Origin: a virus | Lineage: Duplodnaviria; Caudoviricetes | Direction: 5' to 3' (one strand) | Virus record (IMG/VR): IMGVR_UViG_3300011113_000415 | Length of the DNA stretch: 64,000 nucleotides | Shown here: one piece after another, positions 3,481-38,402 of the stretch | How positions within the stretch are numbered: position 1 is the first letter of the stretch | Layout of the letters: every line of letters begins with the position of its first letter | Notes under the pieces: generated by a model | Told to the model about the DNA's origin: nothing | Seen by the model: the letters and a program-made list of their open reading frames with translations, nothing else | Databases searched by the model: none | Made by a program: the position numbers and the translations under genes

Positions 3481-4089
3481 ATGACACTCCACGACGAAGC
3501 AATTTTTAAAGATCATACGGATTATTGGATGGTAGCAGACACCATTCGTGACATTTACTTGAGTGAGGGCAGTTTGCTTACACTGTTGGATTTTGAGCGT
3601 GTGCTGGACGAAATGGATCTGTATGCGTTCAAAAACTGGGACCGTGGCGAACTGGTACAAGGTCCTGACATTGGCAAATACAAAGTGGGCTGTATATTCA
3701 TGTGGCCCGAATCACTCATGCCCGATCCCCGTGGCGCCCGACGTTTGCTGCCATTTGACTGCGAAGTGAGATTCAAAAAAACCACTATCAAAATACCCAT
3801 CAAAGTTGAAAAACCGTCAGACTATCAAGCAGGCACCCACACAGCACGTCTAGTGGACAAGCACGTATGGCTAGTGGAAATAGTCATGCCCAAGAGTTTA
3901 ATTTCAGACATCCGCACAGGAAGTATAGAACTGGAAGATCAAGACATTGACCTAGAAGATTTGGACTCAGCCTATCAAGAAGATCTTGACAATGAACAGT
4001 ATCAAAGTGACGCCAGTGCTGATCAAGCACAGCAGTCATTACAACAACCAGGAGCACCAATTGCAGCCGCACCGCCAGTCGCTTCTTGA
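3481..4089 (+). CDS. Conserved-looking hypothetical protein with acidic C-terminus
   Basis: 202 aa ORF after a TAAATA motif. Confidence 0.7.
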   Translation: MTLHDEAIFKDHTDYWMVADTIRDIYLSEGSLLTLLDFERVLDEMDLYAFKNWDRGELVQGPDIGKYKVGCIFMWPESLMPDPRGARRLLPFDCEVRFKKTTIKIPIKVEKPSDYQAGTHTARLVDKHVWLVEIVMPKSLISDIRTGSIELEDQDIDLEDLDSAYQEDLDNEQYQSDASADQAQQSLQQPGAPIAAAPPVAS

Positions 4090-4609
4090 AGGTCTTGGCT
4101 ACAAAGACCTAGAGGGCATGCTAAAGCCCACTATTCACGTGGACGAATTTGATAGTAAAATGGGTGACAATGATGACATCATTGTCGTAAGTTTCTTTGC
4201 CCGTGATAAGGCCGCAGCCAAGGATCTAATGAATTGGTTTGAAAAAGGCTATGACTTTGTGCTGGATGCTGATCAAAGCCCAGGCGAAATCAAACCCAAC
4301 CGATATCTAGTGTATGTGGAAATGCGACGTCGCAGAGCCGCTCCTGAACAGATTGCGGAATTACTAGAAGACCTGGGCACACTCACAGAGTTTGATCCTG
4401 AGGAATGGACCATGGTTTATCGGGAAAAGAGTCATGACTGGAGTCCTGAACTGTTTGCTCGACTGGTGCCACTGAGCCCACGAGAGTATCGTGAGCGCAC
4501 AGAACGAGACTTGAATGAATGGCGTGTGGCAGCCGGCATGCCGGTCAAGACCACATACGAAGCAGATGATGCTATTCGCTCAATACAATCAGCGGCAGGT
4601 ATCCTATGA
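4061..4609 (+). CDS. Hypothetical protein with short ..LLE leader
   Basis: AGGAG SD at 4050 and TTG at 4061 in frame with track ORF 3986; MQPHRQSLLE/GLGYKDLEG. Confidence 0.65.
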   Translation: MQPHRQSLLEGLGYKDLEGMLKPTIHVDEFDSKMGDNDDIIVVSFFARDKAAAKDLMNWFEKGYDFVLDADQSPGEIKPNRYLVYVEMRRRRAAPEQIAELLEDLGTLTEFDPEEWTMVYREKSHDWSPELFARLVPLSPREYRERTERDLNEWRVAAGMPVKTTYEADDAIRSIQSAAGIL

Positions 4610-6621
4610 AAATACGTGACGTACTATTAGAATTCGCGCCTGGTGGTGGCGGTGACTCAGGTGATTACTTACGAGCCTTGGCTAGTGCCTGGTACAACGG
4701 CACATTTGATTCTGGTAGCCTGCAAAAAGGCATCAAGAGTCAACAAGATGTAGAACGCTTGTTGAATCGCGGCATTGTGTGTCCCGATGGTAAAACACGC
4801 AAACTACACATTGATTACAACTCAGACTTTGATGGTGTGGAAATCTACAGTGATGACTACTATGAACACGGTGACCTAGATGGCAATGACGGTCGCACAG
4901 GACAGCCCTGGGGACCATATGACCACATGGAGTTCAAAGACGAAGAACTAGACGAAGGTGTGGCGGAGGATACAGGTGATCAAAAGTTTGACTCAATGAT
5001 GAGCAGAATGACTGCCGAGCCAAAATATCCTGATCAGGACATGCCACCAACTAGTATTGCTGAATTGATACAATGGGCAGATAGGAACAATAAACCGTAC
5101 CATGAGTATTTTGCTCAATGGGCTAGAAGAAATGGATTTAAAAATGTAAATGATGCACTGGTATGGTTTGGTGACAATGTTGATCCATCTAATCCATGGG
5201 GACCAAAAGACTTTTTAGATCCTTTTGGCCGGCCCGCGGCAGAAGAACTAGAAGATGCTGCCAAGCACGATCCCAAGGCAGCAGAACTAATGAAGGTTTT
5301 TAGATGCTATGAAGAAATTGTATTTGATTGGCCCGATGAGTATCGTCAGATGAATATGCCAGCCTCAAGAAAAGGAACAGATGAAGGTGTGACGGAAGGC
5401 TTAGATCCTTACCGACTGGAACGCCTAGATCCACAGACACGCAGAGTGCTGACTCGCATGACCAAACACGCCGAACCCGGATCATGGCTCAGTGCCGCGG
5501 AGTCATATGCTATGCAACTGGGCCTAGAACAAAAAAATGAGAATCCACGAGCCTGGGAGCAAGAAGTTCAGTATTTTGTCGACCTTTACCGTCAATACAG
5601 TGGGCAAGGCGTGGCGGAAGGCTCCTTGAACGAATTTGCACCCGATAGCAACGACAGTGGTGAAGAAGATGCCTTACACCAGTACGCCAGAATGTGGTGG
5701 GCCGGAGATGAAGCCACACAAATGCAAATTGAACGTGCTCTAGCAAAAATGGGCTGGGAAATTGGTGAGGACGAAGGCAGTTACGACAACGGCGGTGTGT
5801 TTGTGGTACGTGCTGGCGACGTCAACGGCAATAGTTACATTTCATGGCCCGCAGAAGAACTAACAGAAGGCTCGGATCCCTGGGGTTCCCAAGGACGCTA
5901 CGTAGGCGACACAGGACCTGCACAAATATCTACCGCAGTCAAGAGAACCTCATTGAAACCAGGTGATCAAGTCATATACAAACCCACTGAACAACGTGCT
6001 CGTATAGAATCCCTGAGCCGAGACAGCACTCAAGCACGAATTCACATAGCAACTCCCATGGGTGGCCGGATTTTTAACTGCCAAACATCTGACCTAAAAC
6101 AACTGGCCAACGAGACTGAAATTGACCGACTGAAAAATCTTGCTGGTATCAAAGAAAGTCATGACCTTTGCAATGTTTGCGGACAAACACCTTGCAACTG
6201 CACACATTTGTCAGAAGAGTTTGATTTGATAGAATCAATTGTGGAGAAGATTGCTGTCCACAACGGAGTGGACGCAGACATGATCTGGGAAGATTTAGAA
6301 AGTCTCAGCGATGATGAATTGTATGTGTTTGCTGTGACCAGCGAACCCATAATGGAAGACTGGCAAAAGGTCAACAAACAGGATCGTACCTCGGGCATGA
6401 GTCGCAAGGCTGTAAAAGCCTATCGCAGAGAGCATCCAGGATCAAAACTAAAAACTGCTGTGACCACCAAGCCTTCAAAACTCAAGCGTGGTTCGAAGGC
6501 CAGCAAGCGACGCAAAAGTTATTGCAGTCGCAGTCGTGGACAAATGAAAATGCACAACATATCTTGTGCCAAAACTCCTGACAAGGCCATTTGCAAGGCC
6601 CGACGTCGTTGGAACTGTTGA
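4606..6621 (+). CDS. Modular cassette polyprotein (putative virion internal/cargo protein)
   Basis: Leader MKIRDVLLE; three GV[AT]E linkers; duplicated EFAP...W..G module; SH3/KOW-like segment; basic Cys-containing tail. Confidence 0.75.
   Translation: MKIRDVLLEFAPGGGGDSGDYLRALASAWYNGTFDSGSLQKGIKSQQDVERLLNRGIVCPDGKTRKLHIDYNSDFDGVEIYSDDYYEHGDLDGNDGRTGQPWGPYDHMEFKDEELDEGVAEDTGDQKFDSMMSRMTAEPKYPDQDMPPTSIAELIQWADRNNKPYHEYFAQWARRNGFKNVNDALVWFGDNVDPSNPWGPKDFLDPFGRPAAEELEDAAKHDPKAAELMKVFRCYEEIVFDWPDEYRQMNMPASRKGTDEGVTEGLDPYRLERLDPQTRRVLTRMTKHAEPGSWLSAAESYAMQLGLEQKNENPRAWEQEVQYFVDLYRQYSGQGVAEGSLNEFAPDSNDSGEEDALHQYARMWWAGDEATQMQIERALAKMGWEIGEDEGSYDNGGVFVVRAGDVNGNSYISWPAEELTEGSDPWGSQGRYVGDTGPAQISTAVKRTSLKPGDQVIYKPTEQRARIESLSRDSTQARIHIATPMGGRIFNCQTSDLKQLANETEIDRLKNLAGIKESHDLCNVCGQTPCNCTHLSEEFDLIESIVEKIAVHNGVDADMIWEDLESLSDDELYVFAVTSEPIMEDWQKVNKQDRTSGMSRKAVKAYRREHPGSKLKTAVTTKPSKLKRGSKASKRRKSYCSRSRGQMKMHNISCAKTPDKAICKARRRWNC
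4954..4968 (+). repeat. GVAE linker repeat
   Basis: gaaggtgtggcggag = EGVAE. Confidence 0.85.
5383..5400 (+). repeat. GVTE linker repeat
   Basis: gaaggtgtgacggaaggc = EGVTEG. Confidence 0.85.
5605..5622 (+). repeat. GVAE linker repeat
   Basis: caaggcgtggcggaaggc = QGVAEG, followed by SLNE. Confidence 0.85.
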
Positions 6622-6623
6622 CC

Positions 6624-7052
6624 ATGAGACAGTTGATCAATCTAGTAGAAGCAGTGGAAAAGGGCTGTCCCGTTGCCACACACGATATCACACTGAATCT
6701 CAAGAATCGACAAAAGGCCATTGACGACTATCACTACGGCCCAGCCAATCCTTTAGAACCCGGAGACTATTGGAAGCAGGCCGCCCGTCGTTGGCACGTA
6801 AGTGAAAAAATTATAAAAACAATGAAATGTGGAAATTGCGCGGCTTTTGATGCCAGTGACAGCATGCGTGAGTGTATTTCGGCGGGCATTAAAGGTGATG
6901 ACAAGAACATTGATTCAGCGGCTACTATAAATCTCAGTGACCTTGGCTATTGTAATTTTTTACACTTTAAATGTGCAGGTTCAAGATCTTGTTCGGCTTT
7001 TGTAGTTGGTGGACCTATCACTGAAAAAGATAAAGGTAAAAAGGCCAACTAA
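6624..7052 (+). CDS. Cys-rich hypothetical protein (HiPIP-like Cys spacing)
   Basis: ATG 6624 MRQLINLVE; CGNC...YC...C....C pattern. Confidence 0.6.
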   Translation: MRQLINLVEAVEKGCPVATHDITLNLKNRQKAIDDYHYGPANPLEPGDYWKQAARRWHVSEKIIKTMKCGNCAAFDASDSMRECISAGIKGDDKNIDSAATINLSDLGYCNFLHFKCAGSRSCSAFVVGGPITEKDKGKKAN

Positions 7053-7808
7053 ATGATTGCTAGAGACATTGTGGAATCTAGTGGCTACAGTTTGGCAGGC
7101 AGTTACACGCCTGATCTAGTGTTCAGCAAACTGTGGCTGGCCCGTGAATTAAAACACATATTGCAACAACAGGGTATTGATTCAGTACCAGTTGCTTATA
7201 TTTTGGGTTCATGGTACAGCAATCTCAGCACAATTCTACGCAAGACAGGTGTGCCCTTAGACAAAATTGTGGATGTAGAGCGCCGGAAGGAATGGTTAAA
7301 GACAGGCCAGCAATTACAACAAGACATGAACATCACAGGTGTAGAACAAATGCAGGCCGATGCTAACGAAATAGATTATAGACAACTTCAACAGCCCGGC
7401 ATAGTAATCAATACTTCAACCAATGATATTCCTGATCACGGATGGTTTGATAATATACCGTCTGGCACCATTGTGGCACTACAAGGACGTGATCATGTGC
7501 TACCCGGTGCTGAACACACATATAATTCGCCCAACGATCTATTACAAATGTATCCCTTGGAAACTGTGCTGTATTCAGGCACCTGGAACCTAGAAGATCC
7601 AGAAACTGAGTATCAGCGTAGCATGGCAATAGGTATCAAGGGTGCAAATCAATTGCGAGAACTACAGTTCCTGGGTTCAACCTGCACCAAGGACTGCTCG
7701 GGGCATCGTGCTGGCTACAACTGGTCCAAGCGCAAAGGCCTAGTTCACGCCGCATCCTGGAGTCCCAGTTTCAACAAAGGTGCCGCCTTGGCAGTGGCCG
7801 GCAAGTAA
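7053..7808 (+). CDS. Methyltransferase-like protein with leader and basic Cys tail
   Basis: MIARDIVES leader; ILGSWYSNL / DVE / QADANEIDY / INTSTNDI resemble a Rossmann SAM fold; tail after LRE: CTKDCSGHRAGYNW. Confidence 0.55.
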   Translation: MIARDIVESSGYSLAGSYTPDLVFSKLWLARELKHILQQQGIDSVPVAYILGSWYSNLSTILRKTGVPLDKIVDVERRKEWLKTGQQLQQDMNITGVEQMQADANEIDYRQLQQPGIVINTSTNDIPDHGWFDNIPSGTIVALQGRDHVLPGAEHTYNSPNDLLQMYPLETVLYSGTWNLEDPETEYQRSMAIGIKGANQLRELQFLGSTCTKDCSGHRAGYNWSKRKGLVHAASWSPSFNKGAALAVAGK

Positions 7809-8534: not shown

Positions 8535-8546
8535 AGAAATTTTTGG

Positions 8547-8576: not shown

Positions 8577-8586
8577 AGGAGTTTCT

Positions 8587-12541: not shown

Positions 12542-12985
12542 ATGTGGATCTTACACTTTCTTCCTGATTCAGTTATTGTATGGTTTTGCAATATCCTGCT
12601 CCTAGCGGGCATTGTGGCCACTATTGCAGGTTTTTTTGCACATCGCATTCCTGGACTTTGGCAGTATCAACTAGCATTCAAAATAGGTGGCATTTTGCTG
12701 TTGGTCTTGGGTGTTTATTTCCGTGGCGGATTGGCCGTGGAACAGGAATGGCGCGAGCGTGTGGCCGAAGTTGAAAAACGATTGCAAGTGGCCGAAGCAC
12801 AGGCTGCCGAAGCCAATCAACAAATAGAAAACAAAACACAACAACGAGTCACACAAATTCGTCAGCGCATGACCTACATCAAACAGTATGTGGATCGAGA
12901 AGTTGTACGATACAACGATCAATGCCAGATTCCTCAGGCATTTGTTCGTGCTCACAATCAAGCCGCGGAAGCACCTGCCAAATGA
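12542..12985 (+). CDS. i-spanin-like (Rz) membrane protein
   Basis: N-terminal TM helices then coiled coil; followed by a lipoprotein. Confidence 0.6.
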   Translation: MWILHFLPDSVIVWFCNILLLAGIVATIAGFFAHRIPGLWQYQLAFKIGGILLLVLGVYFRGGLAVEQEWRERVAEVEKRLQVAEAQAAEANQQIENKTQQRVTQIRQRMTYIKQYVDREVVRYNDQCQIPQAFVRAHNQAAEAPAK

Positions 12986-13245
12986 AATATGTTTTGCTTG
13001 CTCTAGTGTTGTCGGGCTGTAGCACAGTGGTTCCTGTCACAGCCAAATGGCCTGATCCTCCAGGCAAAGGCGCAATGACAGCATGTCCTCATTTGCAAAA
13101 ATTAACAGATGGCGCAAAATTAAGTGATGTTGCAAACACAGTGTCGGTAAACTATAACACCTATTATGAGTGTGCAGTCAAAGCAGATGCCTGGCAGGAG
13201 TGGTATCAAGTTCAAAAGCACATATTTGAAGGTGCTGGTCGATGA
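12982..13245 (+). CDS. o-spanin-like (Rz1) lipoprotein
   Basis: ATG 12982 MKYVLLALVLSGC lipobox; Pro-rich mature part. Confidence 0.65.
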   Translation: MKYVLLALVLSGCSTVVPVTAKWPDPPGKGAMTACPHLQKLTDGAKLSDVANTVSVNYNTYYECAVKADAWQEWYQVQKHIFEGAGR

Positions 13246-14228
13246 AAATCTCTGATGTGTTGACAGAAGCAGTGCCTGTGTCGGCACCATCAAATGTGGG
13301 TCGCGACTACATCAACATGCTGAACTTTGTCAAAAGCAGTGGCCTGGAAAACGTGCCGCAAGATCAGCAGGTGGCAGTGGCCTTGTTTAAAGAACTGCAA
13401 AAGCAACAGCAAAAGAACACACAACTAGGGCGTGAACTCAGTGCCGCAGAGCGGCGCATTGATCAAGCCATGCAAAGCGATGACCTGCGTGATCAAGAAT
13501 TGGCCTCACACGAAGCCGAACTTGAACGTGAACGTGGTGAAATTGAAAAGCAACAACAAAAAATGGGTCAAATTGATCAAGCCTATGCAGGTCGTGCGCA
13601 GGCCAGTGAGCGTCAAATGCAGGCCTTGACAACACAGTTGGCTCAATTGAAAGACAAACCAGGTGTGGACAAAAGCACCGCAGAACAATTGCAAAATCAA
13701 ATTGAGAAATTGCGAAAAGAAGGCATTGGTCAAGACAAATTAAAAGAACTGCAAAAGAATATTGAATCAATTCAAAGCATGCAACAGGTAGATGATTCGG
13801 TAATTCGAGACCTGGTTGCCAAAATTCAGTCTGCAGAGTCTATTGCCGCTGACGCAGTCCAAACCAAACAAAAATTAAGTCAGGACCTGGAACTCAAGAC
13901 CCAGGCAGCCTTGGACCAAGTGGCACAAATGCGACAGGATTTGCAAAGATTACAACAAGTTGAGAAGAAAGTGGCCAGCCTTGATAAAGAACTAAGTGAT
14001 CTGGAAATTGAATACAGCGACACTACTAAATCGGTCATGGATCTTGAACAAAATGTGTATCGCATAGACACTGCAATGACGGCAAGGAATCAGGCAGCCG
14101 CTGCCAATATAGCACGACAAATAAAACAAAATCCTCAGGCAGCGGCAACACAAGTACAAAAAACCCCGGCGTTAGAGCCATTGGCCGAATCGAGTTTTCG
14201 CAAATTAATTCGATGGGCCACCAAATAA
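13242..14228 (+). CDS. Long coiled-coil protein with capsid-targeting-like leader
   Basis: MKISDVLTE leader; Q/E/K-rich heptads; C-terminal LAE/SSFRKLIRW. Confidence 0.7.
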   Translation: MKISDVLTEAVPVSAPSNVGRDYINMLNFVKSSGLENVPQDQQVAVALFKELQKQQQKNTQLGRELSAAERRIDQAMQSDDLRDQELASHEAELERERGEIEKQQQKMGQIDQAYAGRAQASERQMQALTTQLAQLKDKPGVDKSTAEQLQNQIEKLRKEGIGQDKLKELQKNIESIQSMQQVDDSVIRDLVAKIQSAESIAADAVQTKQKLSQDLELKTQAALDQVAQMRQDLQRLQQVEKKVASLDKELSDLEIEYSDTTKSVMDLEQNVYRIDTAMTARNQAAAANIARQIKQNPQAAATQVQKTPALEPLAESSFRKLIRWATK

Positions 14229-14241
14229 AAAGGAAAAACAA

Positions 14242-14859
14242 ATGAGTACAATCTTGACAAAAGACCAACTAAAACAAATGGTCAAGAATCCTTACATTGA
14301 CCACTGGTACGACGTACTGGAACAATTGCTGGATGACTATGACATCAACACCCCGCTACGTGTTGCACATTTTGTTGCTCAATGCGCACATGAGTCAGGA
14401 AATTTTGTTTTTATCAAAGAAAATCTTAATTACAAGGCGGCCAGCCTACAAAAGATTTTCTCGAAGTATTTCCCCACAGCCGAATTGGCGGCACAATATG
14501 CCAACCGGCCCGAACAGATTGCCAATAGAATCTATGCCAATAGAATGGGCAACGGTTCGGAAGCGTCAGGTGACGGATATAGATACTGCGGGCGTGGCCT
14601 TATACAATTGACCGGCAAGGACAACTACACATTCTTTGCAGGCTCATTAGGCATCAGTGTGGAAGAAGCCTCAGAATATCTGGCCACATTTGAAGGTGCC
14701 GCACAAAGTGCCTGCTGGTTCTGGGAACAAAACAATTTAAATAGATTCGCAGATGCAAATGACGTCAAAGGGTTAACAAAAGCAATTAATGGTGGCTATA
14801 TTGGCTTAGATGATCGCATCAGTCATACAGAACATGCATTACACGTACTAGGTGCCTAA
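14242..14859 (+). CDS. Glycoside hydrolase family 19 endolysin
   Basis: FVAQCAHESG, ENLNY, YCGRGLIQLTGKDNY, TKAINGG. Confidence 0.9.
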   Translation: MSTILTKDQLKQMVKNPYIDHWYDVLEQLLDDYDINTPLRVAHFVAQCAHESGNFVFIKENLNYKAASLQKIFSKYFPTAELAAQYANRPEQIANRIYANRMGNGSEASGDGYRYCGRGLIQLTGKDNYTFFAGSLGISVEEASEYLATFEGAAQSACWFWEQNNLNRFADANDVKGLTKAINGGYIGLDDRISHTEHALHVLGA

Positions 14860-15852
14860 TTGCCTTTGCCCTCAATTAACAGTCACAATTCATGGTCACT
14901 GTTAGAAGAGGTTTGGTTAGGAGATGTATATCCTGTGGAGTGGTACGAACATCTTGCACCCCAAGTGAGAGATGTTTTTCAAAAACTAACCCAAATCACT
15001 CAACAAGATCTTTTGCTTATTCAACGCACAATTGAGTCATTTGGGGTAGTTGTACGTAGACCACAATTCAACAGTATAGACGACCACTTGGTCCGGGATG
15101 TGTTGCAAAAACCTCCTGTTGTGCCCAGGGATGATTTTGTAGTGGTAGGCAATTGTTTGCACCACACAAACTGTATCAATCCAGCATGGTCTTGGATCGT
15201 AGACCAATATCGCCAGGACTCTGCAAGTCAAGTTCGAGCCAGCCCGCACAACTGTGTACATGGCGCAAATGTTGTGCGTGTGGGTCGTGACATTGTGTTG
15301 GACACAGACGTGTTTGATATTGAATACAATAACTGGTGGCCTGACTATCGAGTACAGATGGAAAAAAATGGCGGACACATGGACGGGTGTTTTGCTGTGC
15401 TACGACCAGGTTTGATCTTGGCCAATCACTATTTTGACGGATATGATCGTACTTTTCCTGGTTGGGAAATATTATATCTAGATAATCCCACATATCACGC
15501 ACACCCCAGCACAGGCTACCAACAGCCATATCCGGTGTACAACGGCAAATTTTATGATACTACTGTGGGCACAAACAAAATGTTCAATGAACACATTATT
15601 CAACATGCTCTTGATTGGGTGGGCAATTACACAGAAACCTACTTTGAATTAAATTGCTTGAGCATAGATGAATCAAATGTGATTATGTTAGCAGAAAATG
15701 AACATTTGGCCAATGATCTAAGTCGTCGAGGCATCACTGTACACTGGGTTCCGTTTAGAACACGCAGTTTTTGGGATGGGGCTATGCACTGCTTGACTGT
15801 GGACATACGGCGTCAAAGTACCATAGAGGATTTTTTTGCTGAGCGTGGTTAA
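14860..15852 (+). CDS. Amidinotransferase (pentein family; glycine/inosamine-phosphate amidinotransferase-like)
   Basis: LEEVWLG, PRD, GHMDGCF, GAMHCLT catalytic Cys, R-x-x terminal motif. Confidence 0.8.
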   Translation: MPLPSINSHNSWSLLEEVWLGDVYPVEWYEHLAPQVRDVFQKLTQITQQDLLLIQRTIESFGVVVRRPQFNSIDDHLVRDVLQKPPVVPRDDFVVVGNCLHHTNCINPAWSWIVDQYRQDSASQVRASPHNCVHGANVVRVGRDIVLDTDVFDIEYNNWWPDYRVQMEKNGGHMDGCFAVLRPGLILANHYFDGYDRTFPGWEILYLDNPTYHAHPSTGYQQPYPVYNGKFYDTTVGTNKMFNEHIIQHALDWVGNYTETYFELNCLSIDESNVIMLAENEHLANDLSRRGITVHWVPFRTRSFWDGAMHCLTVDIRRQSTIEDFFAERG

Positions 15853-15873
15853 ATACATCACAAGGAAGAAATC

Positions 15874-16434
15874 ATGGCAGAACAAAAACAAGAAACAAAA
15901 CCATTATCACGTTCAGAACGTGAAGCACAAATCAAAGACAAGGCTGGATGGGTCATTGTTGTGCTGGCCGCACTACTGGCCATTAACACATACCTGGGTA
16001 ATGGCAACTCTGGAAAAGTGTTGAACAATACCATTGACGCCAACAACACCTGGGCATTCTATCAAGCCAAATCAATCAAAGGTACCTTGGCAGAAATGGC
16101 ACTTGATGATGCACTGGCACGCAAAGATGTGAACAAGGCTGCCGCTCTCAGCAAAAAGATTGCACGTTATGAATCTGACCCTGCCACAGGTGAAGGCAAG
16201 AAAGAACTAATGGAAAAGGCCCGTGGTTTAGAAGCAGATCGTGCGGTGGCAAAGTCACGTTCACCTTGGTATACATTTGCTGGATCCCTGTTTCAAATTG
16301 CCATTGTGCTATTATCTGCTAGTATCTTGGCAGTGAACAATCGTCTTTATGTGGCCAGTTTATGGGTAGGCGGTGCCGCAATGATCTTGATGAGCCAGGC
16401 CATTTGGCTTTGGATACCTACAATAGGACTATAA
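15874..16434 (+). CDS. Membrane protein (DUF4337-like)
   Basis: TM helices; NNTWAFYQAKSIK; LFQIAIVLLSASIL; TAAATA at 15850. Confidence 0.6.
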   Translation: MAEQKQETKPLSRSEREAQIKDKAGWVIVVLAALLAINTYLGNGNSGKVLNNTIDANNTWAFYQAKSIKGTLAEMALDDALARKDVNKAAALSKKIARYESDPATGEGKKELMEKARGLEADRAVAKSRSPWYTFAGSLFQIAIVLLSASILAVNNRLYVASLWVGGAAMILMSQAIWLWIPTIGL

Positions 16435-16435
16435 T

Positions 16436-17194
16436 ATGCCAATAAACATCGGCCCCGGAATTAACTTTGGTCCAGGTATCACAGTTGCCGCAGAGCCATC
16501 TCTCTACACACCATTAGCGGGCAGTCTACAGTTCAACGGGAGCAGTCAATATCTCAGTATGTCGCCAGGATTTGCATTGTCATCTGGGGCATATACCATA
16601 GAAGGTTGGTTCTACAACAACAGTTCTTATGCCACTCAAAAGGCATTGGTTGCCACAGATCAAACAGGTGCTCTAAGTCTATTCAACAATGATGCACAGT
16701 CATTTACCCTGGACAAATATGGTGGCTTGGGTGCCAGGACTTACACTTTTCCTACCAATACCTTGCAGATCAACAAGTGGCAGTACATCATACTCAACCG
16801 CAATGCCAGCACTCAGGTAGAAACCATGTGGGTCGGCACCTTTGTTGATACTAGTTCACTGGTAACTTGCAGTCGTGCTACCGCTGCCGCGGGTGGTTCC
16901 AGCATCAGTGGAGGAACACAGGTCAACAATCTTGATTACACAGGGGTCTGTAACTGGATAGGTAGATTCTATGGGGGATATTGGCCCGGTTATATCACCA
17001 ACCTCAGAGCCACCGTGGGTGCGGCTGTGTATGACAGTACCAACGCCACAGTGACAGCGCCGGCGGCACCGTTGACTTCGGGTGCAAATACCAAGTATTT
17101 AATGTTGGGTGCGGCAGTGACCACAGACACATCGGGCACACAAACTGTTACTAATAACGGTACAGTGACACAAACTTCAACTGTACCATTCTAA
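16436..17194 (+). CDS. Concanavalin A/LamG-like structural protein
   Basis: GSLQFNG, YTIEGWFY, WQYIIL, GYITNLR; Thr/Gly-rich. Confidence 0.65.
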   Translation: MPINIGPGINFGPGITVAAEPSLYTPLAGSLQFNGSSQYLSMSPGFALSSGAYTIEGWFYNNSSYATQKALVATDQTGALSLFNNDAQSFTLDKYGGLGARTYTFPTNTLQINKWQYIILNRNASTQVETMWVGTFVDTSSLVTCSRATAAAGGSSISGGTQVNNLDYTGVCNWIGRFYGGYWPGYITNLRATVGAAVYDSTNATVTAPAAPLTSGANTKYLMLGAAVTTDTSGTQTVTNNGTVTQTSTVPF

Positions 17195-17203
17195 GGAACA
17201 GCA

Positions 17204-17899
17204 ATGGCAATTGTAATAGGACCAGGAATCACAGTAGGACCAGGAATCTCAATAACTTCCGCAACTGCCTATGTGACTTCGGGACTTATTACCTATCTCG
17301 ATGCTGGTGACAACGCCAGTTATCCTGGCACAGGAACCACTTGGACTGACCTAAGCAGTGCAAGCAACAACTTTACTTTGACCGCCGGTCCTCCTTGGAC
17401 CAGTGCTGGCGCACAGAGTTATTTCACAATGGCTGGTGGATATGCTGTGAGTACGGCTATTTTGCCGGCTGCCGCATACACCAAGATAGCCGTGTTCTAT
17501 GTGACTGGAAACTTTCTAAACCTCATCAGTGGCGGAGTTACCAGTACTGATCATGCGTTCTGGGGCAACAACAGTCAATTTCTACAGGCCGGACATAACA
17601 GTGCTTGGTCAACTGTGGTTAGTCCTGTTACCACACCATTGAACCAATGGGTCTACGGAGCAGTAAGTTTCAACACCTCAACCGGTTGGCGACTGTATCT
17701 AAATCAAAATACTCCAGTTACCGATGCCAGCACAACCACATTCTCGCCCACGCCAGCAGTGTGTCAAGTTGGTGCGTATCAAGGCGGTAACTATCTAGGC
17801 GGACGAATGGCAGTGAGCATGATCTACAATCGTGTGTTATCAGACAGTGAAATCACGCAAAACTACAACTATTTCAAGACTAGATATAGTATAGCCTAA
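17204..17899 (+). CDS. Concanavalin A/LamG-like structural protein
   Basis: YLDAG..SYPGTGTTWTDLS, WVYGAV, MIYNRVLSDSEITQNY. Confidence 0.7.
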   Translation: MAIVIGPGITVGPGISITSATAYVTSGLITYLDAGDNASYPGTGTTWTDLSSASNNFTLTAGPPWTSAGAQSYFTMAGGYAVSTAILPAAAYTKIAVFYVTGNFLNLISGGVTSTDHAFWGNNSQFLQAGHNSAWSTVVSPVTTPLNQWVYGAVSFNTSTGWRLYLNQNTPVTDASTTTFSPTPAVCQVGAYQGGNYLGGRMAVSMIYNRVLSDSEITQNYNYFKTRYSIA

Positions 17900-17928
17900 A
17901 TCTCAATAAATATCTGAAAGGGGCTAGC

Positions 17929-18474
17929 ATGGCAGAAGAACAAAAATCAATAAGCGACTCAGAAAAGAAAAAAGAAGACTGGATGAACTCTAAATGGCGT
18001 CCGGCCATGGGTTGGATGTACATGTTGACATGTGTCACTGACTTTGTTATCTTTCCTATTCTTTGGAGTTTGTTACAAACTGTCATGAAACAACCAATCA
18101 CACAATGGCAACCACTCACACTACAAGGCGCTGGACTATTCCACATTGCCATGGGTGCTGTGTTAGGTATAGCGGCCATGGGACGCACACAAGAAAAACT
18201 AGCAGGAGCAAACAATGGCGGAGCAGGCACAACCACATCATCAAGCGGCGGTTCAGCATTTGGCTTACCTACAACAGGCCCAGCGCCAGTCACCAACAGT
18301 TGGGGATCACAGCCATTGGGTGGCAACGGCGGAAGCACGTTTGGAAGCGCACCTGTCACAGCACCAGCGTCAGGCTCTGGTAGCAGTGCAGGATTTGGAG
18401 CACCAGCGGCTGAAGTCACTACCGGGTTCGGGGGCAAACCAGCACCTGTAATTCCACCATTCCCAGAAAAGTAA
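17929..18474 (+). CDS. Holin-like protein (3-TM GTA-holin type)
   Basis: WMNSKWRPAMGW motif, TM segments, Gly/Ser-rich tail; ATAAATA at 17906. Confidence 0.6.
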   Translation: MAEEQKSISDSEKKKEDWMNSKWRPAMGWMYMLTCVTDFVIFPILWSLLQTVMKQPITQWQPLTLQGAGLFHIAMGAVLGIAAMGRTQEKLAGANNGGAGTTTSSSGGSAFGLPTTGPAPVTNSWGSQPLGGNGGSTFGSAPVTAPASGSGSSAGFGAPAAEVTTGFGGKPAPVIPPFPEK

Positions 18475-18772: not shown

Positions 18773-19564
18773 ATGCCCGATCACTATGCAACGCTAGGTG
18801 TTGCCCGAACTGCCACTGCCGATGAGATTAAACGGGCTTTCCGTAAGTTAGCCAGTAAGAATCATCCAGACAAAGGTGGTGATACTAAAAAATTTCAAGA
18901 GATCCAGGCCGCTTATGATGTGCTAGGCAATGTGGCCAAGCGAGCGCAGTATGACTCACCACAACCACAGTTCAGCAGTTTTGGTGGCGGTCCAAACTTC
19001 AATGCCAACTTTGATTTCAATACTATATTTGACATGTTTGGTGCTAGGTTCCAACAACCACAACCACAGCGTCCGCAACATTCCCGAATGACTCTTTGGA
19101 TTACACTTCAGGATGTGGCCAATCCTGGCCCTAGAACTGTGAGCATGGGCACACATTCGGGCACTCACAATGTTCAAGTCAACATTCCCGACGGTATTGA
19201 AGATGGTGATCATGTGAAATATGACAATCTGGCTCCAGGTGGTCAAGACCTAGTGATAACTTATCGAATACATCCCATGCCGCGCTGGCAACGCAACGGT
19301 GCTACTTTGATAACAGAAGCACCTGCAAGTTTCTGGTGCCTGGTTGCTGGAGGTGATGTTACTGTGAGTGATATATTGGGCAATCAATTGGCCCTGACAG
19401 TTCCGCCCAATACTGCACCCGGAACCTTGCTACGTGCTAGAGGTCGCGGCTTACCAGATCGTTCGGGCAACCGTGGGGACATGTTGGTTCGGTTACAGGC
19501 CGCACTACCCACCGCAGTTTCTCCAGAATTAATGGCTGCTATCAAACAAGAAATTGGTCAATAA
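18773..19564 (+). CDS. dnaJ: DnaJ/CbpA-like co-chaperone (no Zn finger)
   Basis: J-domain DHYATLGV...HPDKGG...EIQAAYDVL; G/F region; DnaJ C-terminal domain. Confidence 0.9.
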   Translation: MPDHYATLGVARTATADEIKRAFRKLASKNHPDKGGDTKKFQEIQAAYDVLGNVAKRAQYDSPQPQFSSFGGGPNFNANFDFNTIFDMFGARFQQPQPQRPQHSRMTLWITLQDVANPGPRTVSMGTHSGTHNVQVNIPDGIEDGDHVKYDNLAPGGQDLVITYRIHPMPRWQRNGATLITEAPASFWCLVAGGDVTVSDILGNQLALTVPPNTAPGTLLRARGRGLPDRSGNRGDMLVRLQAALPTAVSPELMAAIKQEIGQ

Positions 19565-19582: not shown

Positions 19583-19611
19583 TTGCTGGCCCAGCCTTAT
19601 TCATGTATAAT
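19583..19611 (+). promoter_or_regulatory. Sigma70-type promoter
   Basis: TTGCTG-17 nt-TATAAT with TG extension, upstream of clpA. Confidence 0.6.
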
Positions 19612-19645
19612 CAATTGTATGACAACCTCTTCAGGACACAATCAC

Positions 19646-21919
19646 ATGCAACACAACCCAGAAATCGAAAGTATTATTGAAAACGCGGTCAAAATCGCCC
19701 GCACATGGCAACACGAATATGTGTTGACCGAACATGTATTGTTGAGTCTTGTCAGACACGAACCATTCCGTCGTTGCTTGACCAAGTTTGGCACCGACGT
19801 GGCCATGCTAGAAACTGAACTGTGTGCTTACTTAGACAGTTGCCAAAGTCTAGTATCAGACGACCCAGATATCACACCAAGAAAAACCACTGCCCTGGAA
19901 CGCACATTCAATCGTGCGCTGACCCAGGTGTTGTTTACCGGGCGGCGAGCAGTGACCACAATTGACCTGTATCTGGCGCTCATGGGCGAAACCAACAGTC
20001 ACTCACACTACTTCTTGCTCAAGTATGGTGTGACCAAACAGGAGTTTGTGGAGTTTTGGCAGGCCAACTACAATCAAGGCGAAGCCCACAAACTGTCGGA
20101 CCGCCAGGCCACTGAAATCCTAGATGAACATTGCGTGAGTTTGACTGCCCTGGCCAAGAAAGATCGCCTGGAACCCTTGATTGGTCGTGCAAAGGAACTG
20201 GAAGAAATGATTGCTGTGTTGGCTCGACGCTTCAAAGCCAATGTGCTCATGGTAGGCGATCCTGGTGTGGGCAAAACCTGTATTGTGGAAGGCCTGGCAC
20301 AGGAAGTTGCCGCTGGGCGTGTGCCTGAGTTCCTGAAAGATCATGAAGTGTGGAGCCTGGAAATAGGCAGTTTGTTGGCAGGAAGCAAATATCGTGGAGA
20401 GTTTGAAGAAAAGTTCAAGATGGTGATACAGGCCTTGGAAAGTAAGAAGAAGTGTATCTTGTTTATAGACGAAGCACACACCATGCAGGGTGCTGGAGCA
20501 GGATCAAACGGTGCATTGGACTTTGCCAACATGCTGAAACCTGCTATCACTAGAGGCAGTTTGAAAGTTGTGGCATCAACCACCTGGGAAGAGTTCTATG
20601 AAAGTTTTGAAAAGGACCGTGCGCTGATGCGTAGATTCTACCGCTTGGCCATAGATGAACCTGACCGTGACACCACAGAAAAGATTCTGATCGGTCTTTC
20701 TCCCCGCCTTGAGACCTTTCACAATGTGCTGATCGATACCGAAGCCATGACAGCCGCAGTGGACTTGAGCGGTCGCTACATACACGACAAAAAGAATCCT
20801 GACAAATCAATAGACTTGTTGGATGCGGCCTGTGCTAGAGAGCGTGTGAAAGATCAAGGTCAACTCACAGTCACACGTGACTTGATCATGGCTCAAGTGG
20901 CCCGTGTGACCGGTGTGCCAGTGGATCGCTTGCAAAACGAACGTTCGACCAAGATTGTGGATCTTGAATCAAACATCAAGCAGAAGTTGTACGGTCAAGA
21001 TGCCGCTGTAGATTCAGTACTGGAACGTGTATATATCAACTTTTCCGGCATCGGCAATCCCAATCGACCAATGGCTTCATTCTTGTTCTTGGGCCCAACA
21101 GGTACAGGCAAAACAGAATTGGCTCGACTGTTGGCCTCAAACTTGGACATGCACTTGCTGAAATATGACATGAGTGAGTATCAAGAGCGTCACACTGTAT
21201 CCAGCCTAATAGGTGCTCCTCCTGGCTATGTGGGCTTTGAAGATGGCAACATTGGTGGCGGCAAATTGATTTCAGATGTGAGCAGGAATCCATTCAGCAT
21301 AATCTTGTTTGATGAAATTGAAAAGGCTCATCCTGATGTCAGCAATATCTTGTTGCAGATGCTGGATGAAGGACACATAACTTCCAGTAATGGCAAACGA
21401 GTTGATGTCAAGAACTGTATTATCATCATGACATCAAACTTGGGTTCACAGGATTCTGAAGCCAACAACATTGGATTTGGCAGTTTTGAAAAGACAGGCG
21501 AAGATGATCGAGCACTTAAAAACTTTTTCAAACCCGAACTACGTAATCGTATTGATCACGTCTGCAAGTTTGCCAAGTTGGACACCCTGGCCATCAAGAA
21601 AGTTGTGGTCAAGTTTGTGGACGAACTCAAGACAAGTTTGCATACAAAAGGCATACGCCTCGTGCTATCCGAACCAGTCATTGACCTGCTTGCTCTCAAA
21701 GGCTATGATTCGAAGATGGGTGCGAGACCACTCAGCCGCAAGATTGACGAGTTGATTCGTGTGCCGTTGAGCAAGAAGATCTTGTTTGAGAGACTTGCCA
21801 ACTGTGATGTGGTGGCCACTATAGAGGATGATGCTGTGCATTTTGCAATCACTCCAAGATCGGATGCAGTGACCACTATAGGTGATGATGGTATTGTCAG
21901 AATTGTCAATGAAGTTTAA
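19646..21919 (+). CDS. clpA: ClpA-type Hsp100 AAA+ ATPase
   Basis: Clp N-domain; GDPGVGKT and FIDEAH; GPTGTGKT and LFDEIEKAH; IGF loop; GARPL; no ClpB M-domain. Confidence 0.9.
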   Translation: MQHNPEIESIIENAVKIARTWQHEYVLTEHVLLSLVRHEPFRRCLTKFGTDVAMLETELCAYLDSCQSLVSDDPDITPRKTTALERTFNRALTQVLFTGRRAVTTIDLYLALMGETNSHSHYFLLKYGVTKQEFVEFWQANYNQGEAHKLSDRQATEILDEHCVSLTALAKKDRLEPLIGRAKELEEMIAVLARRFKANVLMVGDPGVGKTCIVEGLAQEVAAGRVPEFLKDHEVWSLEIGSLLAGSKYRGEFEEKFKMVIQALESKKKCILFIDEAHTMQGAGAGSNGALDFANMLKPAITRGSLKVVASTTWEEFYESFEKDRALMRRFYRLAIDEPDRDTTEKILIGLSPRLETFHNVLIDTEAMTAAVDLSGRYIHDKKNPDKSIDLLDAACARERVKDQGQLTVTRDLIMAQVARVTGVPVDRLQNERSTKIVDLESNIKQKLYGQDAAVDSVLERVYINFSGIGNPNRPMASFLFLGPTGTGKTELARLLASNLDMHLLKYDMSEYQERHTVSSLIGAPPGYVGFEDGNIGGGKLISDVSRNPFSIILFDEIEKAHPDVSNILLQMLDEGHITSSNGKRVDVKNCIIIMTSNLGSQDSEANNIGFGSFEKTGEDDRALKNFFKPELRNRIDHVCKFAKLDTLAIKKVVVKFVDELKTSLHTKGIRLVLSEPVIDLLALKGYDSKMGARPLSRKIDELIRVPLSKKILFERLANCDVVATIEDDAVHFAITPRSDAVTTIGDDGIVRIVNEV

Positions 21920-25588: not shown

Positions 25589-25602
25589 CGGTAAATACAC
25601 TC

Positions 25603-28600
25603 ATGAACCTCCATGAGTTAGACCGCTACAAACTTAGTGACGCTGTAAAATTCAATGCTCGTTTGAACCCTCGACTGTGGGGCAAAGATGAGCATTTGAA
25701 GCCCCAAGTGCGCGATGCACTGATGAAAATTGCAGATGATTTCCGCGAAAGTCTGGGCGTTAAAGATCTTGATTTAAAAGACATCACACTTTCAGGATCA
25801 AACGCCGCTTACACTTACACTCCCAATTCAGACATAGATCTACACCTTGTGGTGGATATACCTGATGACCCTGTGTATCGTGAATTGTTTGATGCCAAAA
25901 AGTACGCATATAACAATCAGCATAACATAAAGATTAGTGGCTATGATGTTGAACTGTATGTGCAAGATGTAGACCAGCCACATGTGACTCAAGGTGAATA
26001 CAGTTTGATCGACAACGACTGGATTCAAGTGCCACGTCGTCAACGTGCTGATGTTGTGGATCAAAGCACACGGAGCAAATACCAAGATCTCAAACAACGT
26101 ATCAAGGCGGCTATCAAAACTGAAGATCATGACGTCATGGCCAGTTTGATGGCCAAGATCCGACAACTGCGTCAAAGCGGTCTTGATCAACACGGCGAGT
26201 TTGGTCCTGAGAATCTTGCGTTCAAGATGTTGCGCACACAGGGCTATATCCAAAAATTAGTTGATGCTAGAAACGCTGCCAAGGATCAAGAACTCAGCAT
26301 TGATGAACGTGTGAAGCCGCGTGTGACTTATGGCTTTGCCACTGAATCAAAAGACAGTTTGTCGGACACCATCAATCAGTTTGCCCGTAGTTGTATTGAT
26401 TACTTGGGTATCAAGAAGGCGCCTGAAATCAAGTTGCATACTGATACCAACTGGAGTGAGCAGACAGGTTCGTTTGGTCAGTATGAGCCTGAAACCAATG
26501 TGTTGCACTTGGCCACATCAGGACGTCACACACTAGACATCTTAAGAACCATGGCTCATGAGTTCACACATCGCAAACAAGCAGAAAAACAAAAACTACC
26601 TGCCAATGCAGGTGAGACAGGCAGTCCTTACGAAGACGAAGCCAATGCCATGGCAGGTCGCATCATGCGTCACTGGGCAGAGAAGCATCCTGAGATGTTC
26701 GCTCATGTGCCCTTGGAAGAAGCATCAGGATACATTCCTACTAAAAAGCAAGCAAAGGATCCACGCTTTGTGATGGCTCTCACAAAAGATGTGCGTCCAG
26801 GGCAGACAGGCAAAGAAGCCAATAAACTGGGTTTGCAAACTGATGCCCAAGGTCATCCTGCATTACTAACTGCCCGACTGAATGAAAGTCTTGCTGTAGA
26901 AGATGACCGGTATGGCAATCAAGATCCCACTGGTCCAGAGTCACCACCCAAAATGCCGGACGGCACAATCAAAGTTGATGTAAGTGACATCTATGACTGG
27001 TACAAGATTGGACAAAAGATCAGTGACCTCAAGAGCATTGACAAAAAGACTCTGGGCAAAGGTCCTCCCAGCACTGTGTTGGCATTTGGTTCAGAAGAAC
27101 TTGAAAACATGTACAGCAATGCCTTGATCAACTTGGGCTTGAAAACACATGACCTAGACGAGCCCGGCGAAGAAGACAGACCTGGTTCGGGTCAAGACAT
27201 TGACGAAGCCTTGATTACTGAAACCATTGATGACGCATTGTTTGAAATCAAAATGTCTCCCTCCAATCTGCGCCAAGAAGCAGCCAAGACCGGTGCACTT
27301 GCCGGCATGGAATTTGAAATGATTGTGCCCAATACCGAGGGCGGTGACGATGGAGACCTAGAACCCGACTATGATTACGACCAACGTTGCCGTAGTATAC
27401 AAGACGCATATGACTTTTTCTACGATGGTGACTTCAATGGTCGTAGAGATGTCCAAAACCTGCGTGAAAAGATGCAGGAAGATTATCTTGAGTGGCTGGA
27501 CGAAAAGATCCAAGAAGAATGGGATAGTCAAGGTGAAGAATACATTGCGGAATGGGTCAAGAACAATGTGGATGAATCCGAATGGAATCCAGATGATCTA
27601 GAAGGCGATGCCAGAAACGAAGCACTAGAAGAATATTCTGTAAATGTTCATGCTGATCCTGCCAGTCGTGATTATCAATCAGCCTACGAAGAGTTCCGCG
27701 AAGAACATCAGGAAGATTATGATGAAAGTGACTGGTTGGATGATGCAGATCTAAGCCGCATGAGCGAAATTGAAAATGCCTACAGCATGAGTTGGCCACA
27801 TTGGCGATCACAGGGCGGTGGCGAAGCCAGCATTGAAGATGTGGCGCAGGAATTTGAAAACGCCATTGGGCGTGATGTTCGTGCCAGTGGCAACTATCAC
27901 TCAGGCAGTGTGATACGTCCTAGTCCAACTCAAATACGCTATGTTGTAGAACCTGACGGCAGTTTAGAACCAGATGATCCCAACGATCAAGGCCTGGAGT
28001 TTGTGAGTCCGCCACTACCCATAGACGAAATACTTAGTGACTTGAACAAGGTCAAACAATGGGCCAAGGAGTACGGCTGTTATACCAATGATTCAACTGG
28101 CCTGCACATCAACATTTCAGTGCCCAACTACAGCAGAGAAAACCTAGACTTTGTGAAACTGGCTCTGCTGATGGGTGACAAGTATGTGTTAGATGCTTTT
28201 GGACGTTCAGGCAATACCTATGCTAAGAGTGCGTTTGACATTGTGAAACGTCATGTGCGTGACAATCCTGAAGAGGCCGCCAAGTTGTTAGACAAGATGA
28301 AAGGCAACCTGGATCAACTAGCCACCAAGGCCATTCACTCAGGAATTACTTCAAAGTATACAAGTATCAACACCAAAGACGGCCACATTGAATTCCGTAG
28401 CCCTGGTGGTGACTGGTTAGACGAGAACTTTGATCAAATTGAAAATACCTTGTTGCGTTTCACAGTGGCCATGAGTGCGGCCCTGAATCCTGAAATGTAT
28501 CGTCAAGAATATTTGACCAAGTTATACAAATTGTTGAGCGACGGCAACAAAGATGTGGACACTATCAAGTATTTCTCAGACTATGTGGCCGGCAAGATTC

Positions 28601-36751: not shown

Positions 36752-37425
36752 GTGACGATATCTACAGCATCCTCCACCGCCTGGACTTGATTGAGGGAAA
36801 AATTACTCCCGCCACAGTCAAAAAAGGCCTGAACGCACAACAGAAGTCAGTGCCACAGATGCCGGCACTGTTCAAAATGCCCAAGCAAGGTGCTGTGCTG
36901 GGTGGCGATCCCAACAAGAAAGCAAGTTCGGCTGGTTACATGTTTGGTGATGATGTAGAAGTGGGCCAAATGCCCTTGGCAGAGACCATGGCCGAGATTG
37001 AAGAAGACATGATCAGCAAGGTCAAGAAAGACCTCACACACTATCTAGATCAACTGGCAGACAAAGTCAAAATAGATCAAGACCTCAAAGACAAAGCAGT
37101 CCGAGACATCGAAGATGACGATCCCACAGATCCTGACCGCCAAGAAGAAGATGCGGAAGTAGATGAGATGCATGGCACACAAGGCCAAATCTCCACCATA
37201 CCAGAACCTGCAACATCACCTGTAAAAACTATTCCGTTAGAAGATGGCACAGTGCTGGAAATACACGGTGACCAACGGCGTGGGTTTACCATTCACGCAG
37301 GCGGCCGTAGCATGCCTTCACGGTTTCGAGAACTAGATGAAGCCGAAATGGCAGTGAATCTATACCGTGCTAGACGTCCGGCTGCTCGGCCAGACTCTAA
37401 TCCGGACTACGTGGAAGAAGCATAA
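36748..37425 (+). CDS. Acidic hypothetical protein
   Basis: 225 aa; LDLIE leader-like start; ends DYVEEA. Confidence 0.65.
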   Translation: MSDDIYSILHRLDLIEGKITPATVKKGLNAQQKSVPQMPALFKMPKQGAVLGGDPNKKASSAGYMFGDDVEVGQMPLAETMAEIEEDMISKVKKDLTHYLDQLADKVKIDQDLKDKAVRDIEDDDPTDPDRQEEDAEVDEMHGTQGQISTIPEPATSPVKTIPLEDGTVLEIHGDQRRGFTIHAGGRSMPSRFRELDEAEMAVNLYRARRPAARPDSNPDYVEEA

Positions 37426-38402
37426 TGATACTGAACGAATTTTTTAATTTACCCCAAGTGTTTGAAAAGGACATGACCGAAGTTCAAAGTCAGCATACTG
37501 ACATGACTGTGGCACAACAAGTATTCAAAGACAATCCCAACATTGACCACGAAGATGACATATTGAATGCGGCATTTCCCTATGTGGTCGAACTAGTCGG
37601 CAGTCGCAAACGTGCCAACTACATGTTCAACTACGATGAAGACTTCCCCAGTGATTTGATCGGTGCCTATAGATATCTACAAAGAGACCAACATGATGTG
37701 GGCTTGGAGGAAGGCGAACCTGGCGACCTAGAACACGAATTAGAAAAGCAAGATTATCAGCGCAGACAACAGCGTGATAGTGATGCAGAAAAAGAATTAA
37801 ACAAACAGCAAGGTGTGGCGGAAGGCACGGATGAACTAGCAAAACAATATGGTTGGGCATACAATCAAGGCGAGTACGGAGCATCAATGACGCATCCAAA
37901 ACACGGTCGCATTTCGCTTAGTTCTCCAATTACCAGTAGAAGCGGAGATACCGCAGTTGAACGTGAGTGGACACATAATAATGCCAGTGGTGTTGGTGAT
38001 AGATCATTAGCACAGCATTTGCAAAGTTTGAAAGAGCAAGATGTGGCAGAAGGCATCTTTGGCTCTAAGCCAAATCCGGTGCTTCCCTTAGTTGACAAAA
38101 TTGCCAAGTTGGCCGGAGGACTCACTCCACAAAACGTTGAAGTTGGTAAACAAATTATTCAGGCCAATGTTAGAAATATCCAACGCATGTTGAGCCCACA
38201 AATCAAACCCGGTGTTGAGATTATCGAAGCCAAAGGCGACTATGTGCCACCTAAAGAAGCCGACTATGGTCCAGAATATCAGGCCATGGTAAAACGTGTG
38301 GGTCAAAAGGCCCGAGCACAAGAAAAAGCCAAACAACAACCGCCAAAAGCACCTGTGCGTGAAAGCCGTCTAGCATTGTTGAAACACATCATCCAATCAT
38401 AA
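37425..38402 (+). CDS. Cassette polyprotein
   Basis: MILNEFF leader; QGVAEG and QDVAEG linkers; IIE/AKGDY and VRE/SRL boundaries. Confidence 0.7.
   Translation: MILNEFFNLPQVFEKDMTEVQSQHTDMTVAQQVFKDNPNIDHEDDILNAAFPYVVELVGSRKRANYMFNYDEDFPSDLIGAYRYLQRDQHDVGLEEGEPGDLEHELEKQDYQRRQQRDSDAEKELNKQQGVAEGTDELAKQYGWAYNQGEYGASMTHPKHGRISLSSPITSRSGDTAVEREWTHNNASGVGDRSLAQHLQSLKEQDVAEGIFGSKPNPVLPLVDKIAKLAGGLTPQNVEVGKQIIQANVRNIQRMLSPQIKPGVEIIEAKGDYVPPKEADYGPEYQAMVKRVGQKARAQEKAKQQPPKAPVRESRLALLKHIIQS
37809..37826 (+). repeat. GVAE linker repeat
   Basis: caaggtgtggcggaaggc = QGVAEG (consensus copy). Confidence 0.85.
38037..38054 (+). repeat. DVAE linker repeat
   Basis: caagatgtggcagaaggc = QDVAEG. Confidence 0.8.

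Follow-up and report, generated by a model that had tools for sequence, protein, structure and literature searches.

In a 64-kb stretch of DNA (the window) from an uncultured freshwater jumbo phage with a genome of about 335 kb, IMG/VR record IMGVR_UViG_3300011113_000415, eight genes with unrelated cargo begin with variants of one short leader peptide that ends in Glu. We assign a probability of roughly 0.7 to the reading that these leaders are, as their sequences suggest, T4-type capsid-targeting propeptides, cut after the Glu and carried by a variable set of packaged proteins. The analysis yields the leader family itself, with a fixed geometry and a clear similarity to the T4 capsid-targeting sequence (CTS), places the leader Glu at module boundaries, and documents a protease and head module in close relatives and the turnover of the tagged genes. 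We infer core binding, cleavage, packaging and ejection of the tagged proteins: the leader would tether its freshly synthesised protein to the scaffolding core while the prohead assembles, a prohead protease of the gp21 family (S77) would then remove it after its terminal Glu, and the tagged proteins would probably be delivered to the host with the DNA. The tagged set includes a methyltransferase-fold enzyme, a ParB/GNAT protein, small basic Cys-containing modules and a coiled-coil protein. Several of its members are polyproteins in which hydrophobic-x-Glu also links the modules, so that the protease would divide them further once they are in the head.

The concept is not new; it is established in T4 and had already been put forward for relatives of T4 decades ago. 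The CTS MKTYQEFIAE of the T4 internal proteins IPII and IPIII and the related propeptides of IPI, Alt and gp24 are removed by gp21 (Mullaney and Black 1996; PMC9026906, PMC3012670). Mutagenesis assigned residues 4 and 7 of the T4 CTS to targeting and residues 8 and 10 to processing, Asp in the final position prevents cleavage while targeting persists, and use of the CTS as an engineered packaging tag is already standard practice (PMC9026906). New is the extension of this known T4 principle to the present uncultured jumbo-phage lineage, for which we found no publication describing T4-style leaders.

A leader family at gene starts

The original prediction, made from the sequence of the window, had listed eleven N-termini as one family of leaders, a portable packaging tag for ten or more different cargoes. 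All eleven are present at their coordinates. For six of them (32520, 34472, 34964, 35227, 36136 and 37425), genes called independently on two Logan contigs of this phage have identical starts. The core leader, M-[RK]-x-x-[DE]-[FIV]-[ILV]-(x)-E, comprises Met, three residues, Asp or Glu, two hydrophobic residues, an optional residue and Glu, that is 8 or 9 residues, and is found on g4606, g7053, g13242, g32520, g34472, g34964, g35227 and g36136 (genes named by start position; Table 1). Tagged genes occupy at least three places within the 64 kb. The motif as first written matches true starts, but misses the 8-residue form and the fixed spacing. Of the 995 ATGs on the plus strand of the window, counted in all frames, seven match this strict version, and six of the seven are true gene starts; none of the 675 ATGs on the minus strand matches, so that the search over N-termini that had been proposed finds the motif strongly concentrated at gene starts (6/83 gene starts vs 1/1587 other ATGs; Fisher test, p = 8.5e-8). 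A hydrophobic-x-Glu ending is present in nine of the eleven N-termini. After trimming of the first 10 residues no pair among the listed proteins is similar at E < 0.1. Leader codons differ between genes and the leader DNA is not conserved; the constraint therefore acts on the peptide. The recurrence of the leader in the window is real and far beyond chance.

For a wider comparison, 92 related IMG/VR loci were fetched with g32520, g13242 and g35227 as queries, which together with three complete relatives (G006, G011 and G012) and the window give 96 sources with 2.03 Mb of lineage DNA. The longest contig encoding a window protein has 334,901 bp. The family-B DNA polymerase of the window (39176-41836) is 88% identical to that of G011, 86% to that of G012 and 60% to that of G006; G006 shows only about six leader-like starts and was for this reason set aside in favour of G011 and G012. 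Among cultured phages, the polymerase shares 51% identity with that of Sinorhizobium phage Phosso; for Agrobacterium phage Atu_ph07 the value is 47%, and 121Q/Rak2-type phages give more distant matches. In searches with longer stretches, 20 kb of the window gave no DNA-level match to cultured phages by megablast and g32520 no match to them by tblastn. Pattern scans of Phosso, with about four candidates versus two control matches, were too weak to be used, and Atlas look-ups of g7053 and g34472 provided weak leads only.

In the lineage DNA the leader is found at 182 of 5077 first Mets versus 21 of 13158 later Mets, a 22-fold enrichment; when Q/N/K/S/T replaces the acid, as a control, the motif is no longer enriched at N-termini (2 first vs 24 later Mets). 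Among the 321 genes called in the window and 12 related loci, 47 begin with the leader, and the spacing from Met to the acid is exactly three residues in 46 of these 47, although two to four were allowed. The 138 non-redundant leader-plus-cargo starts of the lineage data have the consensus M-R/K-A/I-x-E/D-F/I/L-I/L/V-x-E followed by A/N/S/G (MRAxEFIxE), with MRAQEFIAE, MRFHEFIAE and MRAQEFLTE as individual examples from relatives; I/L/V occupies P3 in 84 of 89 nine-residue leaders, and A/N/S/G are the commonest residues after the Glu. Lys or Arg at position 2 and A-rich second codons are generally common in bacterial and phage genes, a point in favour of the leaders being devoid of a functional signal and produced by codon or translation constraints on the start region, hidden paralogy or chance. 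We regard this as scarcely credible in view of the concentration at gene starts in the window and the 22-fold first-Met enrichment together with the failed control motif, of leader codons that differ on cargo unrelated in sequence and with distinct domains, and of orthologues which preserve the motif while sequence and length change.

Membership is narrower than first listed. Apart from the eight core members, g6624 starts with a second leader form, MR..IN[LIM].E↓A (the arrow marks the position directly after Glu), found at 24 first Mets vs 3 later Mets, all on orthologues of the g6624 cargo; portability of this form is not demonstrable, as every match in the data set belongs to one cargo family. 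The front half of g37425 is leader-like and conserved only among its own orthologues, and this protein has internal QGVAE↓G and DVAE↓G junctions. Gene 4061 was rejected because it shares only LLE↓G and its orthologues carry other pre-sequences; it belongs to phrog_13138, 'virion structural protein', and its homologues in Atu_ph07 and PA5oct are annotated in this way. A portable T4-like capsid tag is, by several computed lines, the best explanation, but only eight of the eleven proposed N-termini, or nine with the second form, belong to it, which for the window is short of the ten or more cargoes predicted.

Judged by sequence comparison, the leader is an add-on to its cargo, as the same cargo is found with other leaders or none. 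The cargo start AA(N/S)PAQQAAIAIA follows MILRDFFTE in g35227 and MKLNDVILE in its G011 orthologue; PHROG homologues of g34964 begin at residue 10, without the leader. The family of g7053 is abundant in metagenomes (1418 homologues at E < 1e-5), and among 120 close homologues the leaders vary in sequence and length (MRAQELTE, MILGDIFE, MKTHEILSE and others), despite which M1, E8 and the cargo start SSGY are invariant. The orthologue of g34472 carries MKVTDIITE, and an orthologue fragment of g13242 (L014) retains the leader.

The tagged genes represent a fast-changing accessory set. Compared with the window, G011 and G012 lack g6624, g13242 and g34472 and share only the end modules of g4606, g32520, g7053 and g35227, in the case of g32520 only the last approximately 100 residues, in contrast to the untagged neighbours of the leader genes, which are conserved there over their full length.

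The terminal glutamate and the prohead protease

The 40 residues that follow each leader were sought elsewhere in the data set, which yielded 223 non-redundant internal contexts. Glu directly precedes the internally placed module in 68% of them (background 7.1%) and hydrophobic-x-Glu in 59% (background 2.3%), figures to be taken as an indication and not as a probability, as the contexts are not all independent. The NLRKWF module is preceded by Glu in 42/42 and the CWKGY module in 29/33 internal contexts, both behind many different upstream sequences, and the g34472 module in 5/5; several apparent exceptions are alignments shifted by a few residues. Proteins of the window contain QGVAEG-type linkers, and modules are shuffled inside proteins. 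The leader Glu thus coincides with a module boundary, and gp21 and related proteases of giant phages are reported to cut at hydrophobic-x-Glu (PMC9026906).

In both G011 and G012 one PF03420 (Peptidase_S77) protease gene is present, in G012 at 204405-205052, and the more distant G006 and Phosso also possess this protease; no PF03420 gene was found in five related contigs, an uninformative result, as these are only 6-35% complete. The gene order of G012 is that of T4, with portal, two small core-like genes, protease, a scaffold-like gene and a gp23-like capsid protein, and BLAST relates the G012 proteins to T4 gp20 (E 2.5e-28), gp21 (4.6e-18) and gp23 (2.4e-35; 28% identical).

A hydrophobic-x-Glu grammar common to leaders and internal sites would also be expected if the leader were a short propeptide with a prohead-protease site and nothing else, entry into the head being determined by other parts of the protein or by co-assembly. 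The capsid protein of G012, which has several LLE↓G, ILE↓N and LKE↓N sites in its N-terminal region, and the large polyvalent protein g25603, which is without leader, are in line with such a role. However, the leaders possess features not present at internal junctions, namely Met followed by exactly three residues, a basic position 2 and an acidic position 5, and the residue before P3 is Phe, Ile or Val in leaders and mostly polar at internal sites. These leader-specific features map onto the T4 CTS residues for targeting rather than for cutting (PMC9026906), and exchange of the acid abolishes the N-terminal enrichment. A function in processing only is therefore considered unlikely.

The leader might alternatively be read by another machine, such as a ClpA-like unfoldase (19583-21919), a chaperone or a modifying enzyme, as a recognition or degradation tag, and the window indeed encodes ClpA-type AAA+ and DnaJ-like proteins. 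Yet G006 and Phosso retain the Clp gene but have few such leaders, and an informal check across 90 related loci read found no enzyme gene that accompanies the leader genes. As a degron or a modification site would leave the protease-motif ending, the T4 CTS match and the match to polyprotein junctions unexplained, this alternative appears very improbable.

Several observations weigh against capsid targeting. Head genes are absent from the 64-kb window, and protease and head genes of this lineage were seen in relatives only. G011 and G012 each have only four to six strict leaders among 430-450 called genes; the size of the tagged set consequently varies a lot. Related contexts enter the junction statistic, part of which may stem from a conserved linker instead of a cleavage site. 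The position of g13242 in the middle of a lysis cassette is unexpected for a head protein. Furthermore, g25603 heads the main cluster of leader genes without a canonical leader, so that either the tag is not the only route or g25603 is not packaged. Finally, the promoter-like TAA[AG]TA boxes which open the runs of leader genes also stand ahead of kinase-like and cytidylyltransferase-like genes; 'late operon' alone therefore does not mean 'virion'.

Cargo and neighbourhood of the tagged genes

Table 1. Leader genes of the window, listed N-termini that are doubtful or were rejected, and adjoining features.
Feature	Coordinates	Strand	Length	Leader or start; remarks
Virion-structural-protein homologue	3481..4089	+		phrog_12928, E 7.5e-28; heads tightly packed run 3481-7808
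Gene 4061	4061..4609	+		TTG start; listed N-terminus MQPHRQSLLE; conserved N-terminal LLE↓GL
g4606	4606..6621	+	671 amino acids	MKIRDVLLE (4606-4632)
g6624	6624..7052	+	142 amino acids	second leader form MRQLINLVE↓A; Cys-rich
g7053	7053..7808	+	251 amino acids	8-residue leader MIARDIVE (7053-7076)
g13242	13242..14228	+	328 amino acids	MKISDVLTE; long Gln/Glu-rich, coiled-coil-like cargo
TAAATA box	25592..25597	+		5 nucleotides before ATG of g25603
g25603, polyvalent protein	25603..32523	+	2306 amino acids	heads main cluster of leader genes (32520-38402)
g32520	32520..34475	+	651 amino acids	MRAREFVRE
g34472	34472..34939	+	155 amino acids	MKVTDVILE, then AFDQPY... cargo
g34964	34964..35230	+	88 amino acids	MRAEEFINE, then widespread NLRKWFKEKWVR module and basic tail
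g35227	35227..35850	+	207 amino acids	MILRDFFTE
g36136	36136..36348	+	70 amino acids	8-residue leader MRAREILE, cargo start NASATTSSAGSIAT; MRAREILE↓NASATTSSAGSIATISQPLGMVSR
g37425	37425..38402	+	325 amino acids	MILNEFFN..VFE; leader-like front half, no Glu at position 8/9; doubtful member

The cargo of the tagged genes is diverse. The polyprotein g4606 consists of modules divided by GVAE/GVTE/LTE↓G junctions and ends with a DUF6321 module (residues 592-669) which is 63-73% identical to modules in the T4-like cyanophages S-H34 and P-TIM68; in all three, Glu directly precedes the module. In Synechococcus phage S-H34 (genes at L317 649-1290 and 1334-2755), gp032, a neighbour of the DUF6321-module gene, starts with MKTYQELME↓A, and in P-TIM68 (L318 1481-2764) gp097 starts with MDNSNSINE↓SLRDWF, the module type of g34964. 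The AlphaFold model of g7053 has residues 1-9 with a predicted local distance difference test (pLDDT) score < 50 and a fold that begins after residue 9, predicted to be class I S-adenosylmethionine (SAM)-methyltransferase-like (methyltransferases matched by Foldseek, E 5e-8); the fold is followed by a basic tail, CTKDCSGHRAGYNWSKRKG, which contains Cys/His and is conserved. In g32520 a ParB-like domain (residues 141-228) and a GNAT-like G-K-G-L-G-K motif precede modules behind KVAE↓G and QGVAE↓N junctions, and g35227 combines the modules AANPAQQAAIAIA, ACWKG (after QMDE↓), a weak PG_binding_1 match and a zinc-ribbon-like CPECGG module.

The junction of g36136, EILE↓NASATTSSAGSIAT, resembles the capsid-protein stretch YLKE↓NASAGSTAAGNIAT (weak, pairwise E ~0.01). 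Both g36136 and its G012 orthologue (62030-62230) resemble the N-terminal arm of the major capsid protein (G012 206174-207370, ..KYLKE↓NASAGSTAAGNIATLNRVILPVIRR) with pairwise E of 0.01 and 5e-4, respectively, and g36136 may, from this similarity, be a free copy or mimic of that arm.

With respect to genomic context, g4606, g6624 and g7053 come after two virion-structural-protein homologues, annotated as such in Atu_ph07 and PA5oct, in one packed run. Spanin-like and endolysin genes flank g13242; the lysis cassette (12542-18474) comprises spanin-like genes at 12542 and 12922, an endolysin gene at 14242 (phrog_181, E 2e-77) and a holin-like gene at 17929. A DnaJ-like protein (18773-19564), judged from the N-terminal J-domain motif in the translation, adjoins the Clp gene, which encodes a ClpA/ClpB-type double AAA+ protein (Clp_N, AAA, AAA_2, ClpB_D2-small) and is conserved in G011 and G012 as well as in Phosso and G006.

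The polyvalent g25603 contains NTP_transf_2 nucleotidyltransferase, Amidoligase_2, ADPrib_exo_Tox ADP-ribosyltransferase (E 3.9e-15) and GNAT domains. Its N-terminus (MNLHELD..) was considered as a leader and rejected, as it belongs to the first domain. In related contigs its homologues are between about 540 and 2317 residues long; their N-terminal nucleotidyltransferase domain is conserved, and the sequences indicate that in this family C-terminal modules have apparently been gained and lost on a large scale.

Each run with leader genes opens with TAA[AG]TA-N4-7-ATG. Besides the box before g25603, such boxes are found at 3470 (TAAATA-N5-ATG of 3481), 12531 and 34953 (TAAGTA-N5-ATG of 34964), ahead of the other runs of leader genes. 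On the plus strand the pattern occurs at 3470, 9551, 12531, 22551, 23549, 25592, 34953 and 54998, in all eight cases at gene starts, with one site on the minus strand. From its resemblance to the core of the T4 late promoter TATAAATA, the box may be a late-type promoter core, and its position abutting the start codon looks like it would give nearly leaderless mRNAs. The exact T4 late promoter TATAAATA is absent from the window, and a generic sigma-70 and terminator scan of the window gave nothing useful.

Comparison with T4 and other phages

If the capsid-targeting reading is true, a simple sequence rule would name proteins carried in the head of an uncultured giant phage and probably delivered with its DNA, the tagged set would be a first-strike toolkit against host defences, and metagenomes could cheaply be mined for injected effectors. 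The label might work across phages, since it is nearly identical to that of T4, in which case the cargo of uncultured phages would become testable in T4. More tentatively, and at odds that we place somewhat below even, one address label (M-R/K-x-x-E/D-F/I-I/L-x-E) and the hydrophobic-x-Glu junction rule could constitute a grammar of the T4 superfamily, from coliphage T4 to cyanophages and freshwater jumbo phages, for assembling, splitting, fusing and swapping well over 100 different capsid-delivered modules and enzymes.

In the T4 record, ipII and ipIII start with MKTYQEFIAE, gp24 with MAKINELLRE, Alt with MELITELFDE and gp22 with MLKEQLIAE. As a positive control, the leader pattern run on 100 kb of T4 (177 open reading frames) returned ipII, ipIII, gp24 and Alt in addition to 61.1, modA.2 and an internal Met, so that its T4 matches are for the most part head proteins known to be processed by gp21. 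Gene 61.1 (NC_000866, 18966-19130) encodes a 54-residue hypothetical protein which starts with MKTFKEFIKE and which, besides ipII and ipIII, is the sole match in the whole T4 genome to M-[KR]-x(2,3)-E-h-h-x-E (h, hydrophobic); from this start, gp61.1 may be an unrecognised CTS-bearing protein.

Like the T4 CTS, the leaders are N-terminal, have about 10 residues with the core acid-hydrophobic-hydrophobic-x-Glu and are located on unrelated proteins; in some relatives of the window phage QEFIAE is even identical. The conserved leader positions 6, 7 and 9 (F/I/L/V, I/L/V and E) align with T4 CTS residues 7, 8 and 10, and the counterpart of T4 Tyr4 is variable (A, I, Y, F and others). The lineage further shares with T4 a gp21-family protease, a head module in T4 order and tagged genes as a variable accessory set, the turnover of which parallels the variability described for T-even internal-protein loci (PMC3012670). 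On the other hand, the leaders have 8 or 9 residues instead of 10 and prefer Arg-Ala at positions 2-3, and large enzymes are found among their cargo, as are polyproteins of several modules with internal hydrophobic-x-Glu junctions, in contrast to the mostly small basic proteins of T4. The lineage is only distantly related to T4.

The ejection proteins of the giant phages phiKZ, 201phi2-1 and SPN3US carry long N-terminal propeptides that are cut after Glu by gp21-like proteases (PMC5694885, PMC10052503). The phiKZ-type giant phages resemble the phage studied here as jumbo phages in which many head proteins are cut after Glu and propeptides are thought to target the prohead. Their propeptides, however, are mostly > 100 residues long and share no single short tag, whereas the leaders described here are of T4 length.

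Polyvalent proteins (Iyer et al. 2017, PMC5512222) are effector-type proteins of several domains, with ART, ParB, GNAT and peptidoglycan-binding themes, for which packaging and injection are predicted. The likeness, at least two disparate domains in g25603 and in g32520 (ParB-like and GNAT-like), concerns the cargo and not the leader. While polyvalent proteins are defined by domain architectures and not by an address tag, many modules of the present lineage are separate genes with leaders of their own.

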